From assembly GCA_903845045.1 (NCBI GenBank), contig CAIMWA010000683.1, positions 1-61,583 of the forward strand: DNA of 61,583 nt. The letters are read 5' to 3'. The notes beneath the pieces were generated by a model, which saw only the letters and a list, made by a program, of their open reading frames with translations, was not told the origin of the DNA and did not search any database. The position numbers were made by a program, and so were the translations under genes. This stretch comes from an uncultured delta proteobacterium. Lineage in GTDB: Bacteria; Myxococcota_A; Polyangia; Polyangiales; Ga0077539. Positions 45,350-51,101 of the stretch are shown one piece after another; position 1 is the first letter of the stretch, and each line of letters begins with the position of its first letter.

Positions 45350-46249
45350 TCAGCGCGGCGCCGCGTCGTACGCGCAGCGAAAGCCCAGGTTCGTGAACGA
45401 CGACCGCGGAAGGTTGTGCCCGCGGTACCAGAGCCCGAAGCCGTCGCACGTTCCGTGGCCGCACCACCACGAGCCGCCGCGCACCACGCGATACACGGCG
45501 CCCGCGCTCGCCCCGGCGTCGATGCCTCGCGCGGCAGCGGCGTAGGCGTCGCGGCGGTAGGCGTCGGAGGTCCATTGCCACACGTTGCCCACGGCGTCGT
45601 AGAAGCCCCAGGCGTTGGGTGCGAAGGCGCGCACCGGCGACACGTAGACCCAGCCGTCGGCACGGTCGTTGTGCGCGTGGCTCGCGCCCTGCCAGAAGTT
45701 CAGCCGCGGACGACCCTGCGCGTCCATCGGCGACGCGCCCCACGGAAAGCGCGTCCCGGCGGAGCCCGCGCGCATCGCGTACTCCCACTCGGCCTCGGTG
45801 GGCAGCCGTCCGTGGCTCCACGCGCAGTACGCCACGGCGTCGTCGAAGGAGACGAGCACCACCGGCGCGTCGTCGCGGAGAAAGGTCCGCGTGTCGTCGT
45901 TCTCCACGCCGAAGGGGCGGCGCCACGACGCGTGCGGCTCGCGCTGCCACGCCCAGTCCTCGAAGCCCTCGTAGGAGACCGTTCCGTAGCGCGTGCGCTC
46001 GGCCTCGGTGACGTGCCCCGTCGCCGTCACGAAGCGCCCGAAGGCGCCGCGCGTCACCAGCGTCGCGTCGAGGCAGAACGCCCCCACCGACACATGGTGC
46101 ACAGGACCTTCGTCGGGGCGGGAGCTCCCGGCGTGACCTTGCTCGAAGGTGCCCGCGGCGAGGCAGCGCACGTCGTCGCGCGGGGACTGTGCCGACGCCG
46201 TCGCCGACGCCAGCAGCACCGCCGCGGCGATCGCGAACGGTGGCTTCAT
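45350..46249 (-). CDS. Formylglycine-generating enzyme (FGE/SUMF1) family protein
   Basis: PVVLVSFDDA.AYC.W..GRLPTEAEWEYA, PNAWG.YD..GNVWQW and RGGSWWCGHGTC motifs; signal peptide. Confidence 0.85.
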   Translation of the reverse strand: MKPPFAIAAAVLLASATASAQSPRDDVRCLAAGTFEQGHAGSSRPDEGPVHHVSVGAFCLDATLVTRGAFGRFVTATGHVTEAERTRYGTVSYEGFEDWAWQREPHASWRRPFGVENDDTRTFLRDDAPVVLVSFDDAVAYCAWSHGRLPTEAEWEYAMRAGSAGTRFPWGASPMDAQGRPRLNFWQGASHAHNDRADGWVYVSPVRAFAPNAWGFYDAVGNVWQWTSDAYRRDAYAAAARGIDAGASAGAVYRVVRGGSWWCGHGTCDGFGLWYRGHNLPRSSFTNLGFRCAYDAAPR

Positions 46250-47055
46250 CGATCCGTCGTGGTCGACGCGTCGCCGGGTCCCGCGTCGCTCCCGTCATCC
46301 GCCGACCCCTCGCCGGGCAGCGACGGACCGTCTTCCCCAGAGGTCATGCACAGCGCCTGCTCGTCCTCGGAGCAGTGCCCGCGGCGCCCCATGCAGTTCA
46401 TCGTGCACGCGTCGGAGTCGGCGTTGCGGCACGCGACGTGGCATCGACGGCACCACCCGAGGCAATGGTCGGCGCGGTACCGGCGCACGAGGGCCGCGTT
46501 GCACGCGTTCGTGCGCGCCATGCAGCCGGCCGACAGGCAGCGGTCCTTGGCGGCGACGGCGTCGTCGAGGCATGCGGCCTCGGAGCGCGCGCACGCGAGG
46601 CGGCACACGTCCGTCGTGCACGTCGACGCGCACGTCACCGCGGCGGAGCGGCACCGCGTCTCGCCCGCATCGCAGGTGTGCATGCACGCCGTGCGGCACG
46701 GAAGGTCCCGCGTGAAGCACGGGTCCGGCTCGCACGACTGCGGGTCCACGTCGCCCGCGCAGCCGTAGATGTTCGCGGGCATCTCGTCGGGGTCGCGTTG
46801 CGCGAAGCTCCACGCGGGGCTGCGCACGAGCTCCCGGAGCACCGGCTCGTCGCGGTACGCCGCCGCGTTCTCGAGGGTCATCGGCACGTCGTCGTCGTCG
46901 ACCCCCGCGTCCGTCGACACCGCGGGCGCGGGCGACACCGAGGCGTCCATGACGGCGACGGGTCGCGGGGCGGCGGCGGGGCTCTGCGGGGCGCGCGGCG
47001 TGCGGCACCCGAGGAGCGCCATGAGCAACACGAACTTCGGCGAAGGCTTCGACAT
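46246..47055 (-). CDS. Cys-rich helical lipoprotein
   Basis: Lipobox LLGC; many CxxxC pairs; acidic tail; ATGA-coupled to the FGE gene. Confidence 0.65.
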   Translation of the reverse strand: MSKPSPKFVLLMALLGCRTPRAPQSPAAAPRPVAVMDASVSPAPAVSTDAGVDDDDVPMTLENAAAYRDEPVLRELVRSPAWSFAQRDPDEMPANIYGCAGDVDPQSCEPDPCFTRDLPCRTACMHTCDAGETRCRSAAVTCASTCTTDVCRLACARSEAACLDDAVAAKDRCLSAGCMARTNACNAALVRRYRADHCLGWCRRCHVACRNADSDACTMNCMGRRGHCSEDEQALCMTSGEDGPSLPGEGSADDGSDAGPGDASTTTDR

Positions 47056-47147
47056 CTCGGGCTCAGGGCTCCCTCGGGGCGTCGGCCCCGCGAACGCGGC
47101 GGTTCTCGCACGCAGGGCGCGGTCCGCAAACGGCGTCCGGGCGTGAG

Positions 47148-47170
47148 TGCAACAACGTAACTCTGTCCCC
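47148..47170 (-). repeat. GGGGAC-23mer repeat locus D (single copy, 1 mismatch)
   Basis: TGCAACAACGTAACTCTGTCCCC in the divergent intergenic region. Confidence 0.9.
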
Positions 47171-47229
47171 AGCACGGCGGACCCGTGGTAGACGAAACCA
47201 CACGCCCGCCTCCCGCAGCGACACGACCG

Positions 47230-48222
47230 ATGGCCGAGCCCTCGCGCACCCGTCCGAACGCCACGATCTCGCCGCTCGCCCACGAGGTGGCGATGAAGCT
47301 GACCCGCGCCGTCGGGGCGGTGCTCACGGGCAAGCCCGACGTCGTCGAGCGCGCCGTCGTCACGCTCCTCGCCCGCGGCCACCTGCTCATCGAGGACGTC
47401 CCCGGCGTCGGCAAGACCACCCTCGCCCGCGCCCTCGCCCGCGCCCTCGGCACCGACTTTCGCCGCGTGCAGTGCACCAGCGACCTCATGCCGTCGGAGC
47501 TCCTCGGCGTGAACGTCTACAACGCCTCCGAGCGGCGCTTCGAGTTCCGCCCGGGCCCCGTGTTCACGCACCTCCTCGTGGCCGACGAGATCAACCGCGC
47601 CACGCCGAAGACGCAGAGCGCGCTCCTCGAGGTCATGAGCGAGCGCCAGGTCTCCATCGACGGCGCCACGCACCGCCTCGAGGAGCCCTTCGCCGTCATC
47701 GCCACGCAGAACCCCGACGACGCCGCGGGAACGTATCCGCTGCCGGAGTCGCAGCTCGATCGCTTCCTGCTGCGAACCGCCGTGGGGTACCCGTCGGCGG
47801 CCCTCGAGAAGCAGATCCTCTCGACGCGCGGAGGCACCGAGCCCGTCGACGAGATCGAGGCCGTGCTCACCGTCGCGCAGCTCGTCGCGGCACAGCGCGA
47901 GGTCGACGCCGTGGTCCTCGAGGCCAGCGTCGTCGACTACGCCTACGCGCTCGTGCATGCCACGCGCACCCACGAGCAGATCTCCGTCGGCGTCTCGACG
48001 CGCGGCGCCCTCGCCTTCGTGCGCGCCGCCAAGGCCCGCGCCATCGTGCGCGGCCGCAGCTACGTCATCCCCGACGACCTCTCGGACCTCGCCGGCCCGG
48101 TGCTCGCACACCGCATCCGCGTGCACGGCGCCGACCCCGCGCTGCTCCCCGGCGACGCGCGGCGCAGCGACGCCGACCGCATCGTGCACGAGATCGTGCA
48201 GCGCACCGACGTTCCGCTGTAG
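47230..48222 (+). CDS. MoxR-family AAA+ ATPase
   Basis: GHLLIEDVPGVGKT, QCTSDLMPS, LVADEINRATPKTQSALLE and ATQNP...GTYPLPESQLDRF motifs. Confidence 0.92.
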   Translation: MAEPSRTRPNATISPLAHEVAMKLTRAVGAVLTGKPDVVERAVVTLLARGHLLIEDVPGVGKTTLARALARALGTDFRRVQCTSDLMPSELLGVNVYNASERRFEFRPGPVFTHLLVADEINRATPKTQSALLEVMSERQVSIDGATHRLEEPFAVIATQNPDDAAGTYPLPESQLDRFLLRTAVGYPSAALEKQILSTRGGTEPVDEIEAVLTVAQLVAAQREVDAVVLEASVVDYAYALVHATRTHEQISVGVSTRGALAFVRAAKARAIVRGRSYVIPDDLSDLAGPVLAHRIRVHGADPALLPGDARRSDADRIVHEIVQRTDVPL

Positions 48223-48278: not shown

Positions 48279-49463
48279 CTACAGCGCCGCCGCGAGCCCC
48301 TCGCGGATCAGCCGGCGCACGAGCACCAGCTTGCCGTCGTCGTCGAGCGGACCGGGCAGGTCGCGCACCGCCGTCGACGGGTGCGTCAGCACGTGCTTCG
48401 CGGCCTCGGCGGCGTGCGGCGGCAGCGTGAGCTCGCGCCCGGAGAACGCCACCGTGAGCCCCTCGGCGCTCTCACGGAAGCGGAACACCAGCGTCGATCG
48501 CACACCGACGCGGTCGTCGGGGGTGAGCAGCGCGAGGCGGCACACCTGCTGGAGCTGTCCGCGCAGCAGCGACGGGCGGTTCGAGCGCATCTCCTCGGCG
48601 TAGAAGTCCATGGTGCCGTCGAAGTCGGCGTGGTCGTGCAGGCGCTGCAAGAGCCCGCGGAAGGTCTTCTCGGCCTCGGTGCGGTCGAAGCCGTCCTGCG
48701 AGTGACCCGCGGGGATGCTCGCGCGAAACGCCGGGTCCTTGAGGGCGATGCGCGCGACGGTCTCGATGATCGCCTCGGCCCACGACGTGTGCAGCACGCC
48801 CACGGTGATGTGCAGCGACTCGCTGCTCGTGGTCTGCGCCTGGTGCATGACCCCGCGCGGCAGGTACAGCATGTCGCCGGGCTTGAGGTCGAACTCCGCG
48901 CTGACGGGACCAGGCTCCGCCGGGAACTCCGAGAACGACTGACCGCGCAGGGGCAGCGCCACCGCCGTGTCGTAGAGGGTCCAGTGCTTGGTGCCGTGCG
49001 TCTGCAGCACGAACACGTCGTGGCTGTCGTAGTGCACCTTGAGGCCCTGCGACTCCCGCGGCGTGAGGTAGATGTTCGTCTGGATCGGGCACCCCGCGTC
49101 GCGCTCCACCTCGCGGCAGAGCCCCGCGAGCGCAGGAACGAAGCGATGCAGCTGGTTCATCACCAGCGAGCCGCCCAGCGCGAACTGCTGGTAGAGCCGC
49201 GCCACGTCGATGACGTCGTTGCCGAAGGTGTAGTCCTTCGTCGTCACCGGGCGGTTCGCGTTGGCCACGGTGATCGCCGGGAACGAGAGCTGGTACGTCG
49301 TGATGACGCGGTCGACCTCGTCCATGGTGAGCAGGTCGTCGTAGTAGTGCGGCGCGTCGCGATGCACGATGAGCGGCTCGCGCTCCCAGTGCTTCGCGAA
49401 GAACGCCGCAGGGTCCGTCGGGCTGATCATCCGGGCGAGATCGAAGGTGTCCGTGCTGCTCAT
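48279..49463 (-). CDS. JmjC/Cupin_4 Fe(II)/2OG oxygenase, ribosomal-oxygenase (NO66/YcfD)-like architecture
   Basis: FFAKHWEREPL, NIYLTP, HYDSHDVFVLQ.HG.K.W (HxD), LYLPRG..HQA (His), and a C-terminal winged-helix-like 'LVLVRRLIREGL'. Confidence 0.9.
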   Translation of the reverse strand: MSSTDTFDLARMISPTDPAAFFAKHWEREPLIVHRDAPHYYDDLLTMDEVDRVITTYQLSFPAITVANANRPVTTKDYTFGNDVIDVARLYQQFALGGSLVMNQLHRFVPALAGLCREVERDAGCPIQTNIYLTPRESQGLKVHYDSHDVFVLQTHGTKHWTLYDTAVALPLRGQSFSEFPAEPGPVSAEFDLKPGDMLYLPRGVMHQAQTTSSESLHITVGVLHTSWAEAIIETVARIALKDPAFRASIPAGHSQDGFDRTEAEKTFRGLLQRLHDHADFDGTMDFYAEEMRSNRPSLLRGQLQQVCRLALLTPDDRVGVRSTLVFRFRESAEGLTVAFSGRELTLPPHAAEAAKHVLTHPSTAVRDLPGPLDDDGKLVLVRRLIREGLAAAL

Positions 49464-49743
49464 GAGTGCGCCTTCTACACCGGGTGGAACCGACGCTCCC
49501 AGCGCGAACGCGCGCCGCCGTGGAACCCCGTGTGCGCCCCCGTCGACGCAACCTCCGACGGGCAGATTCAACATCCCGCACGAACTGCGCGATGAATGTT
49601 CGGACCGGCGGTTCCGTACGAACACCTTGCGTCCCGGCGTCGATTCGTGATTCCGTGACGCTGTTGGTCAACCTGCCCGCGGGAGTAGGTCCGTCGCCCT
49701 GAGCGGCACCGTTCACCGTGGGTTTCGCGCGGAGGATTTCGAG

Positions 49744-50094
49744 ATGGCGGACAAGAAGGTCACCCTGACGGACGACGAGATGGTGAGCTCCGAGGGCATG
49801 GGACGTCGCACGGCGCTCGGCATGATCGGCGCCGGCGTGGTGGGTGCGGCGGTCGGCGCGGCCGTCGGCCTGCGTCCGGAGACGGCCCAGGCCCAGAGCG
49901 GCCCGAACGACAGCGACAGCGGCCCCGGCGAGGACGCCCCGGGTCACGGCGTCACCGGCGCCAGCGATCGCGACAGCGGCCCGAACGAGGACCGCCCGAA
50001 CCACGGCGTGTGCGCGCGCCGCGGCGTGACCGACAGCGACTCTGGCAACGGCGCCGACGGCGCTAGCCATGGCCGCGGTCCCTGCCACCAGTAA
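49744..50094 (+). CDS. Small twin-arginine-signal protein with three DxDSGxxxDxxxHG repeats (candidate multicore precursor)
   Basis: GGAGGA RBS; GRRTALG; hydrophobic h-region; AQA cleavage site; repeats at 49909-49950, 49966-50007 and 50032-50073. Confidence 0.8.
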
Positions 50095-50119: not shown

Positions 50120-50155
50120 CGCGGCCGGTTCGGGGTACTCCCTCGGGCCGGCCGC
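50120..50155 (+). other. Strong hairpin directly before the glyQ start codon
   Basis: CGCGGCCGG / CCGGCCGCG outer stem ending 1 nt before ATG 50157. Confidence 0.6.
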
Positions 50156-50156
50156 G

Positions 50157-51101
50157 ATGTATTTTCAAGAGCTCATCCTCACGCTGCAGCAGTTCTGGAC
50201 CGCGAGGGGGTGCCTCCTCGTGCAGCCCTACAACAGCGAGGTCGGCGCGGGGACCTTCAACCCGCACACGTTCCTCCGCGCCCTCGGCCCGGAGCCCTGG
50301 AGCGTCGCCTTCGTCGAGCCCTCGCGGCGCCCGGCGGACGGACGCTACGGCGACAACCCGAACCGCCTGCAGCAGTTCCACCAGTTCCAGGTGATCCTCA
50401 AGCCGTCGCCGCTCGACATCCAGGACCAGTACCTGGCGTCCCTCGCGGCCCTCGGCACGGACCCGCTGAAGCACGACGTACGCTTCGTCGAGGACGACTG
50501 GGAGTCGCCGACGCTCGGCGCCTGGGGCCTCGGCTGGCAGGTGTGGCTCGACGGCCTCGAGGTGTCGCAGTTCACGTACTTCCAGCAGTGCGGCGGCTTC
50601 GACTGCCGTCCCGTGTCGGGAGAGCTCACCTACGGCCTCGAGCGCATCGTGATGTACCTGCAGGACGTCGACGACATCTACGAGGCGATGTGGGCGCCCG
50701 GCGTGCGCTACGGCGAGATCGCCAAGCGCGCCGAGTGGGAGTGGTCCACGTACAACTTCACGGCGGCGGACGTGGAGCACCACCGCGCGCAGTTCGACAC
50801 CTGCGAGCGCGAGTGCCGCCGCATGCTCGGCCTCGAGGAGCAGCGCATCGAGACCAAGAAGGGACCGCGCACGGAGCTCGGCTACGTGAAGGCCCCGCTC
50901 GAGCGCCTCGCCCTGCCCGCCTATGATTTCTGCGTGAAGGCGTCGCACCACTTCAACGTGCTCGACGCCCGCGGCGCCATCTCCGTCACCGCGCGGCAGG
51001 ACTACATCAAGCGCGTGCGCGGCATCGCCCACCGCTGCGCCGAGTCGTGGCTCGCCCAGCGCGAGGCCCTCGGTTTCCCGCTGCTCAAGGGCCGCACGTG
51101 A
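50157..51101 (+). CDS. glyQ: Glycine--tRNA ligase alpha subunit
   Basis: [44 protein letters not shown] and ELTYGLER motifs. Confidence 0.96.

Follow-up and report, generated by a model that had tools for sequence, protein, structure and literature searches.

The ribosomal oxygenases (ROX) are JmjC enzymes represented by NO66 (RIOX1), MINA53 (RIOX2), YcfD (RoxA) of Escherichia coli and the ROX of Rhodothermus marinus. In these proteins a JmjC domain is combined with a helical domain and a winged helix, and the active site has an HxD...H triad with an aligned Lys. Their chemistry is the C3-hydroxylation of a protein residue located in a Gly-rich loop, and their substrates are Arg81 of uL16, His216 of uL2/Rpl8 and His39 of uL15/Rpl27a. 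Here, we describe a locus in a stretch of 61,583 nucleotides from an uncultured delta proteobacterium (contig CAIMWA010000683.1; this whole stretch is called the window below), in which an oxygenase of this type is encoded next to a short precursor peptide with a twin-arginine translocation (Tat) signal and a repeated core. The ROX enzymes are the best matches of the window enzyme in both sequence and fold, and they share with it the three domains, the triad and the Lys. Unlike them, the window enzyme has as its apparent substrate a dedicated, linked and exported repeat peptide instead of a ribosomal protein, several paralogues occur per genome, and the likely target is Asp rather than His or Arg.

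JmjC enzymes are also found in pathways of peptides that are synthesized ribosomally and modified post-translationally (RiPPs). BipG is a JmjC ornithine hydroxylase of the biphenomycin pathway (PMC12707348), and CzlI is a JmjC Phe hydroxylase of the curacozole pathway (PMC11575548). As in the cassette described here, a JmjC-type Fe/2-oxoglutarate (2OG) enzyme and a ribosomal precursor are encoded near each other. However, BipG and CzlI perform accessory steps within clusters of several enzymes, equipped with proteases and transporters of their own, and act on a single core, whereas in the cassette the JmjC protein is the sole enzyme, the leader lies within the Tat signal and the core is made of multiple repeats.

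Two further groups of RiPPs resemble the cassette in that a general-secretion signal replaces the classical set of leader, protease and transporter. These are the bufferins, which are MNIO-modified, signal-peptide-bearing and copper-binding (PMC11626156), and the RiPPs of the lipoprotein pathway (PMC13056109). Bufferins receive their modification in the cytoplasm and act in the periplasm; buffering of metals is a plausible role here too, and some cassette paralogues have a lipobox. The Sec signal, the MNIO (DUF692) and DUF2063 proteins and the conversion of Cys to thiooxazole belong to the bufferins only. Neither MNIO (DUF692) nor DUF2063 is conserved in 21 cassette neighbourhoods, and Cys is not conserved across the precursor family.

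The reaction that we propose below, the formation of 3-hydroxy-Asp in a polypeptide, is performed by FIH (a JmjC enzyme that acts on Asn, Asp and His of ankyrins), AspH (on EGF domains) and CinX/DurX (on Asp of lanthipeptides). Beta-hydroxylation of Asp and Asn is also carried out by alpha-ketoglutarate-dependent HExxH enzymes (PMC12186529). All of these Asp/Asn beta-hydroxylases have other folds or belong to distant JmjC branches, and they have neither a Tat-leader precursor nor repeat cores. Searches of the full-text literature (JmjC with RiPP or Tat, hydroxy-Asp with RiPP, and the literal motifs) returned no account of a sole ROX-type oxygenase paired with a Tat-leader repeat precursor, nor of the motifs. 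RiPP-like modification of peptides by a 2OG oxygenase is already known; what appears to be new is the combination of a ROX-type enzyme acting as the sole enzyme with a Tat-leader repeat precursor, and its wide distribution.

The oxygenase and the precursor of the window

The window (G+C content of 73.8%) belongs to a lake-water metagenome-assembled genome (MAG) whose nearest named relatives are Sandaracinaceae (Polyangiales) MAGs. The two genes are divergent, with 280 bp between their start codons. Their features are the following, in window coordinates; third-codon-position G+C is abbreviated GC3.

48279-49463, minus strand: gene of the ROX-type JmjC Fe(II)/2OG oxygenase, 394 aa, stop codon at 48279-48281
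48786-49463, minus strand: JmjC double-stranded beta-helix catalytic domain, residues 1-226, from the alignment with MINA53 and the invariant residues
49032-49034, 49026-49028 and 48843-48845, minus strand: Fe ligands H144, D146 and H207, codons checked
48987-48989, minus strand: K159, likely 2OG-binding, from the alignment with MINA53
48540-48782, minus strand: helical (dimerisation-type) middle domain, residues 228-308, from AlphaFold2 helices at 228-242, 262-278, 281-294 and 303-308 and Foldseek comparison with NO66 and MINA53
48282-48512, minus strand: C-terminal winged-helix-like domain, residues 318-394, four strands and then helices in the AlphaFold2 model
48294-48362, minus strand: motif DLPGxLDDxGKLVLVRRLIREGL within the C-terminal domain, nearly invariant among homologues
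49464-49743, no strand: divergent intergenic region of 280 bp with the presumed promoters, read from the sequence
49744-50094, plus strand: precursor gene, 116 aa, stop codon at 50092-50094, 48 database homologues, GC3 of 0.91
49744-49893, plus strand: whole signal peptide, residues 1-50, ending in AQA (residues 48-50), read from the sequence
49759-49788, plus strand: leader motif, residues 6-15, T7 and L8 invariant in the subfamily
49804-49809, plus strand: twin-arginine pair R21-R22 of the Tat signal, invariant in the alignments
49906-49950, plus strand: core repeat 1, residues 55-69, with D58, G60, D64, G67 and G69 invariant
49963-50007, plus strand: core repeat 2, residues 74-88, with D75, D77, D83 and G88 invariant
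50029-50079, plus strand: core repeat 3, residues 96-112, with D97, D99, G101, D105, G110 and R111 invariant
50011-50013 and 50083-50085, plus strand: Cys90 and Cys114, which flank repeat 3 and are at least 90% conserved in the subfamily

An earlier sequence-only reading of this DNA had described an acidic pre-leader, a twin-arginine pair, an AQA site, three repeats and two Cys in the peptide, and an oxygenase with an intact HxD...H triad 280 bp away. Each of these elements lies exactly where it had been placed. Both frames are coding, as indicated by the contrast between the GC3 of the oxygenase gene (0.96) and the peptide gene and that of the two other frames of the peptide region (0.75 and 0.60). 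The open reading frame of the oxygenase as originally listed, with a GTG start and 448 aa, is over-extended. Its true start is the ATG at 49463 (MSSTDTF...), since the homologues span 390-399 aa and include a protein of 394 aa with 99% identity.

The oxygenase matched the Pfam family JmjC_2 (PF08007, E=6.6e-29). Among PDB sequences, its best matches were MINA53 (4e-33 over 284 residues) and NO66 (1e-23), followed by YxbC of Bacillus subtilis (4e-13) and the Rhodothermus ROX (8e-8), while YcfD of E. coli gave a match of 4e-6 over 85 residues only. Identity to the ROX enzymes is no higher than 23-26%. Nevertheless, the AlphaFold2 model (predicted local distance difference test score, pLDDT, of 92.7) displays three domains and aligns by Foldseek with NO66 and MINA53 over approximately 430-440 columns (E of about 1e-28, TM-score of 0.69-0.71), whereas FIH, JMJD5 and TYW5 match far worse (for FIH, E of about 1e-8 and TM-score of 0.35). 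The window enzyme is a genuine ROX-type oxygenase with the three-domain architecture. In the alignment, H144-x-D146...H207 and K159 fall on the metal and 2OG positions of MINA53 (HxD...H, GEKHW) and, together with N130 and Y132, they are invariant among 61 oxygenase homologues. The enzyme looks catalytically competent on this basis.

Many homologues are labelled "ribosomal protein L16 Arg81 hydroxylase" by JGI. The similarity values indicate, however, that the enzyme is not an orthologue of YcfD, and grouping with the uL16 hydroxylases, which the sequence-only reading had named as a point to check, is not seen. The enzyme does not fit a single housekeeping uL16 hydroxylase of the YcfD/RoxA type, since MINA53 is far closer and the genome has three peptide-linked copies.

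In the precursor, R21-R22 is followed by an h-region of 20 residues rich in Gly, Ala and Val. The motif D-x-D-S-G-x3-D-x3-H-G has three exact matches (residues 56-69, 75-88 and 97-110). The His at positions 68, 87 and 109 had been taken as invariant, a claim that did not hold: within the closest subfamily these positions vary between H, R, Y, N, Q, G, A and C, in contrast to the invariant Asp and Gly positions. AlphaFold2 modelled the precursor as a disordered chain with no secondary structure (pLDDT of 47). A folded Ca-binding module was not seen in that model, which does not argue against folding upon metal binding. No family model for the precursor was found in Pfam or NCBIfam; weak NCBIfam matches to Tat-target models cover residues 15-57, the signal region. 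TatC is encoded in the genome (E=1.6e-63). By the layout of its signal (RR, h-region, and AxA or lipobox), the precursor is a predicted Tat substrate.

Pairing of oxygenase and precursor across genomes

The sequence-only reading had linked enzyme and peptide by adjacency, and this link is now strengthened by conservation across phyla, three paralogous pairs and co-diversification. The genome of the window encodes three paralogues each of the peptide and of the JmjC protein, and every peptide adjoins a JmjC gene. The pair in the window is divergent, while in the two other pairs (C472:19745-21567 and C295:2121-3724) the peptide is directly upstream on the same strand, as in an operon. Of these two paralogous precursors, one is of a four-Cys type (EAEACRR...). 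In the other, which has 199 aa, a Tat lipoprotein signal (ALGGC) is combined with a linker rich in Gln and Pro and with four repeats of the form TGLTDxDSGx[WY]ADPVGxGRG.

The same association was observed in 61 related genomes. A full-length JmjC gene lies no more than 900 bp from 50 of 60 peptide loci, and a peptide is present at 48 of 53 JmjC loci. Among those 50 loci, the peptide is upstream on the same strand in 41 (gaps of 55-370 bp), divergent in 8 and downstream in 1. Meanwhile, a JmjC profile scan of the GTDB species genomes detected at least 590 relatives, and our cross-phylum counts are based on the 80 best of these. The 80 loci come from Sandaracinaceae, other Polyangiales, Terriglobia, Acidiferrales, Bryobacteraceae, Vicinamibacterales and many Alphaproteobacteria, and also from Steroidobacteraceae, Bacteroidota and Anaerolineae. 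Cultured carriers are Pararhodobacter aggregans D1-19, Pararhodobacter marinus CIC4N-9 and Paramagnetospirillum marisnigri SP-1, which makes the system experimentally accessible in Alphaproteobacteria.

A strict test for a precursor required, within 1.5 kb, the leader motif, an RR pair, a hydrophobic stretch and two or more DxD; 56 of the 80 loci passed it, and at least 67 passed a looser one. Contig ends truncate three or four of the negative loci. Applied to the whole genome (7.66 Mb), the strict pattern gave four matches, two of them true, and the chance expectation in 80 loci is approximately 0.06. The co-directional layout was found in 39 of 61 GTDB loci. Pairing of enzyme and peptide is beyond chance.

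Enzyme and precursor have also diversified together. A maximum-likelihood tree of the enzymes groups them by the type of the adjacent precursor, with 4 label changes against a mean of 11.0 after shuffling of the labels, and none of the 200 shuffles reached 4. The precursor types are the following.

Type A: window-like, with VC...GPCH
Type B: lipobox and four repeats that contain W or Y
Type C: AEAC, with four Cys

This clustering indicates that enzyme and peptide were duplicated and inherited as units. Some loci have two or three precursor genes around a single enzyme. No third conserved gene (protease, transporter or second enzyme) was found in 21 neighbourhoods of 17 kb, which extends the earlier remark that the pair in the window has no adjacent protease or transporter. 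Ser/Thr kinase and MOSC genes recur in these neighbourhoods but reflect genus-level synteny only.

Leader, core and candidate reaction

The N-terminus of the precursors is conserved across phyla as L-[TS]-D-[DE]-[DQE]-I-V-T-E-R, and the spacing between its Leu and RR is 13 residues in 48 of 68 precursors. The motif is followed by RR[ST][FA]L (RRSFL in the acidobacterial members) and a hydrophobic stretch, with a lipobox instead of AxA in type B and in many alphaproteobacterial precursors. The cores are hypervariable and differ from lineage to lineage. Those of Myxococcota and Alphaproteobacteria are made of T-D-S-D-S-G-x-x-A-D-x-x-G-x-G-R repeats, from 3 to more than 14 copies, those of Acidobacteriota of [SA]-D-P-D-K-K-K or D-P-D-K-P repeats, that of Methyloceanibacter of K-D-P-D-D, and those of other lineages of D-S-D or D-T-D strings. 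The sole core feature common to all phyla is D-x-D, mostly with Ser or Thr in front of it ([ST]-D-x-D), and DxD is 2.6-3 times more frequent than expected from composition in every phylum group. The split into a conserved leader, a putative recognition sequence, and a variable core is consistent with a RiPP-like organisation.

Some cores depart from the general pattern. In P. aggregans D1-19 and a related MAG (L117 and L119), the precursors reach 360-415 aa and contain 12-14 nearly identical copies of the GLTDSDSGxGADPAGNGRGGG repeat; these candidate substrates are protein-sized, not peptide-sized, and one of them is in a cultured strain. The precursor of one Acidobacteriota MAG (L083), encoded upstream of the JmjC gene, combines DPN/DPD-Pro repeats with the His run HHHRHHHHHH (KKHHHRHHHHHH), a hint that the product family binds metal. 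Shorter cores of the form C-[ST]-D-S-D-P-x-D-x-x-G-x-G-R-x-C, which lack the Ser-Gly and have a Cys pair around each repeat, occur in L036 (G015:C241), L045 (G020:C52) and L067-L072 (Sandaracinaceae). The paired Cys of these cores suggests disulfide-closed mini-loops. The short-core peptide of genome G015 has no oxygenase adjoining.

The C-terminal motif of the enzyme, DLPGxLDDxGKLVLVRRLIREGL, is near-invariant in enzymes whose precursors bear the leader. In three loci of Caulobacteraceae, Terricaulis and Hyphomonadaceae (L140, L142 and L144), the precursors have no leader and begin MSEKKKLNRRSF, and in all three enzymes the motif is swapped for D[LI]xIEKxDAxISTLLAYGLI. This correspondence is a hint that the C-terminus of the enzyme may read the leader. 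A 2025 survey reported folds similar to the RiPP recognition element (RRE) fused to PF08007 domains (PMC12710340).

His and Arg were both considered as the hydroxylated residue and rejected. The variability of His in the subfamily, and its absence from 28 of 35 alphaproteobacterial cores, make His hydroxylation unlikely as a family-wide reaction, and Arg, which would be a YcfD-like target at GxGR, is missing from 9 of 27 acidobacterial cores. Most myxobacterial and alphaproteobacterial cores have no Lys. The best candidate for the target residue is Asp, because [ST]DxD is the only family-wide feature of the cores. To our knowledge, all characterised ROX enzymes, as well as FIH, are residue C3-hydroxylases.

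Based on these findings, we postulate that the two genes form a modification cassette. The product of the small gene would be an intrinsically disordered precursor with a Tat signal at its N-terminus. The motif in the n-region of this signal, approximately 13 residues before RR, would double as a RiPP-like leader. The cytoplasmic oxygenase would dock on this leader via its C-terminal winged-helix domain and hydroxylate the beta-carbon of Asp in every [ST]DxD repeat. Tat accepts short, hydrophilic, unfolded chains, and the modified peptide, itself unfolded and hydrophilic, would then be exported by this route. Signal peptidase I would cleave after AQA50, taking off leader and signal together in a single step, while the paralogous lipobox types would follow the lipoprotein pathway. 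Since the leader would be removed by signal peptidase and export provided by Tat, no linked protease or transporter would be needed. The mature product would have 66 residues, up to 9 hydroxy-Asp and probably a Cys90-Cys114 disulfide.

Hydroxy-Asp is a ligand of Ca(II) and Fe(III). Circumstantial support from these ligands, from the polyanionic or zwitterionic cores, from the His run of L083 and from the analogy with bufferins suggests that the product is probably a cation or metal binder of the periplasm or the extracellular space. We assign a probability of roughly 0.6 to the cassette as a whole, that is, to leader docking, Asp beta-hydroxylation, Tat export and a cation- or metal-binding product.

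Several observations weigh against this reading. Orphan peptide copies occur at approximately 7 of 57 assessable loci, nearly all in genomes with an oxygenase elsewhere; peptides without the enzyme had been named in advance as a sign of false pairing, and the pairing stood in most loci but not at these. Genome G015 (77% complete) has peptides, and no JmjC gene was detected in it. Conversely, approximately 9-12 of the 80 GTDB JmjC loci have no recognisable precursor. As for leader docking, the loss of the leader and the divergent C-terminus of the enzyme represent one evolutionary event, and the C-terminal domain gave no sequence-level match to RRE or PqqD families in Pfam or among PDB sequences. 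The leader itself holds [ST]-D-x-[DE], so it could be the modified site instead of the core. Finally, no metal-regulatory site was found upstream of the genes.

The alternative that survives best is that the JmjC protein and the peptide do belong together as enzyme and substrate, but with another chemistry or another site, which we regard as unlikely, though with real weight. The modification could fall on positions adjacent to Ser or Thr, on Pro in DPD, on the variable residue of GxG or on the T-D-D-E of the leader, or it could be a desaturation, a cross-link or a backbone cleavage. Sequence alone assigns no target residue, the leader is the most conserved part of the precursor and resembles [ST]DxD, and the GxG position of myxobacterial cores is occupied by H, R, Y or N, residues that are all open to beta-hydroxylation. 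Titles cited in two papers credit 2OG enzymes of RiPP pathways with macrocyclisation, cleavage and hydroxylation (PMC12710340, ref. 45; PMC12636437). Against other residues stands the fact that the Asp of DxD is alone in being common to the cores of all phyla, while His, Arg and Lys are each missing from many cores and some repeats have Gly at the variable GxG position. Against other chemistries stands the fact that the nearest characterised relatives, NO66, MINA53 and YcfD, are simple residue C3-hydroxylases.

It is improbable that the main role of the JmjC protein is one of regulation or chaperoning, be it as a repressor of the peptide gene, as a "proofreading" chaperone of Tat, or as a cargo that hitchhikes by binding the signal and performs no chemistry. 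The divergent layout of the window is typical of regulator-target pairs, and the winged-helix domain could bind DNA. However, the peptide is upstream and co-directional at most loci (in the related genomes and in GTDB alike), which is the layout of an operon. TorD- and DmsD-type chaperones bind signals next to RR, and the conserved motif beside RR resembles such signals; yet a purely structural role would not be expected to keep the Fe and 2OG ligands invariant among the homologues. A precedent for repression is Esi, a JmjC/cupin-like protein of Sorangium that was reported to be a DNA-binding repressor and to bind the epothilone promoter (PMC5442856) and that counts among the points against the cassette, although a comparison of five orthologous divergent intergenic regions revealed no common, operator-like motif. 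An exported hitchhiker would find no 2OG outside the cytoplasm.

That the enzyme is an ordinary ribosomal oxygenase, acting on uL16 or another ribosomal protein next to an unrelated peptide, as the JGI annotation and the ROX fold might suggest, is highly improbable given the marginal similarity to YcfD (4e-6, against 4e-33 for MINA53), the three paralogues per genome that each co-diversify with a different precursor type, and an adjacency kept across several phyla.

If the proposed cassette exists, these findings have implications for the annotation of the ROX/JmjC_2 family, which is labelled wholesale as L16 Arg81 hydroxylase and would gain a second, probably much larger class of substrates. 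The cassette would also represent a minimal two-gene logic for peptide natural products, in which the Tat signal stands in for leader, protease and transporter. Its products would be a widespread family of secreted chains built from repeats, perhaps poly-hydroxy-Asp polymers, in bacteria that are abundant in soil and water.

A bolder extension, which we consider doubtful, is that the Tat signal itself is the RiPP leader and part of a "modify-before-export" checkpoint. The winged helix would keep the precursor in the cytoplasm until all [ST]DxD are beta-hydroxylated, and would hand it to Tat only afterwards. The resulting poly-(3-hydroxyaspartate) peptides and proteins would be ribosomal equivalents of hydroxy-Asp siderophores or of Ca-binding EGF modules, and in Myxococcota, Acidobacteriota and Alphaproteobacteria they would serve to capture or buffer metals in the envelope.

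Genes and signals around the cassette

No sigma-70-like consensus was found in the 280-bp intergenic region. The locus was detected in lake-water DNA metagenomes only; one metatranscriptome, with 5% of the words, was uninformative. The neighbours of the cassette in the window are genes for a MoxR AAA ATPase, a protein with an FGE-sulfatase domain, GlyQ and a TPR protein. One further feature lies downstream of the precursor.

50120-50156, plus strand: GC-rich hairpin followed by a U-run, a probable terminator or attenuator, with a stem of 16 pairs, a minimum free energy of -41.4 kcal/mol and z=-4.2 against shuffled sequences

This hairpin lies after the stop codon of the precursor and abuts the ATG of glyQ (50157), with a U-run that overlaps the start of glyQ. 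Either termination of the peptide gene or control of glyQ translation could be its role.

Genes of glycyl-tRNA synthetase adjoin the cassette in two unrelated loci, namely glyQ (50157-51101) downstream in the window and glyS upstream in a JGI metagenome contig (L063, 1-950). The precursors have approximately 20% Gly, and the position of the cassette beside these genes may be a coincidence. Lastly, the stretch 46246-47352 (minus strand), between the genes of the FGE-sulfatase-domain protein and the MoxR ATPase, encodes a predicted lipoprotein rich in Cys (MSKPSPKFVLLMALLGC..., over 30 Cys) that has no Pfam family.

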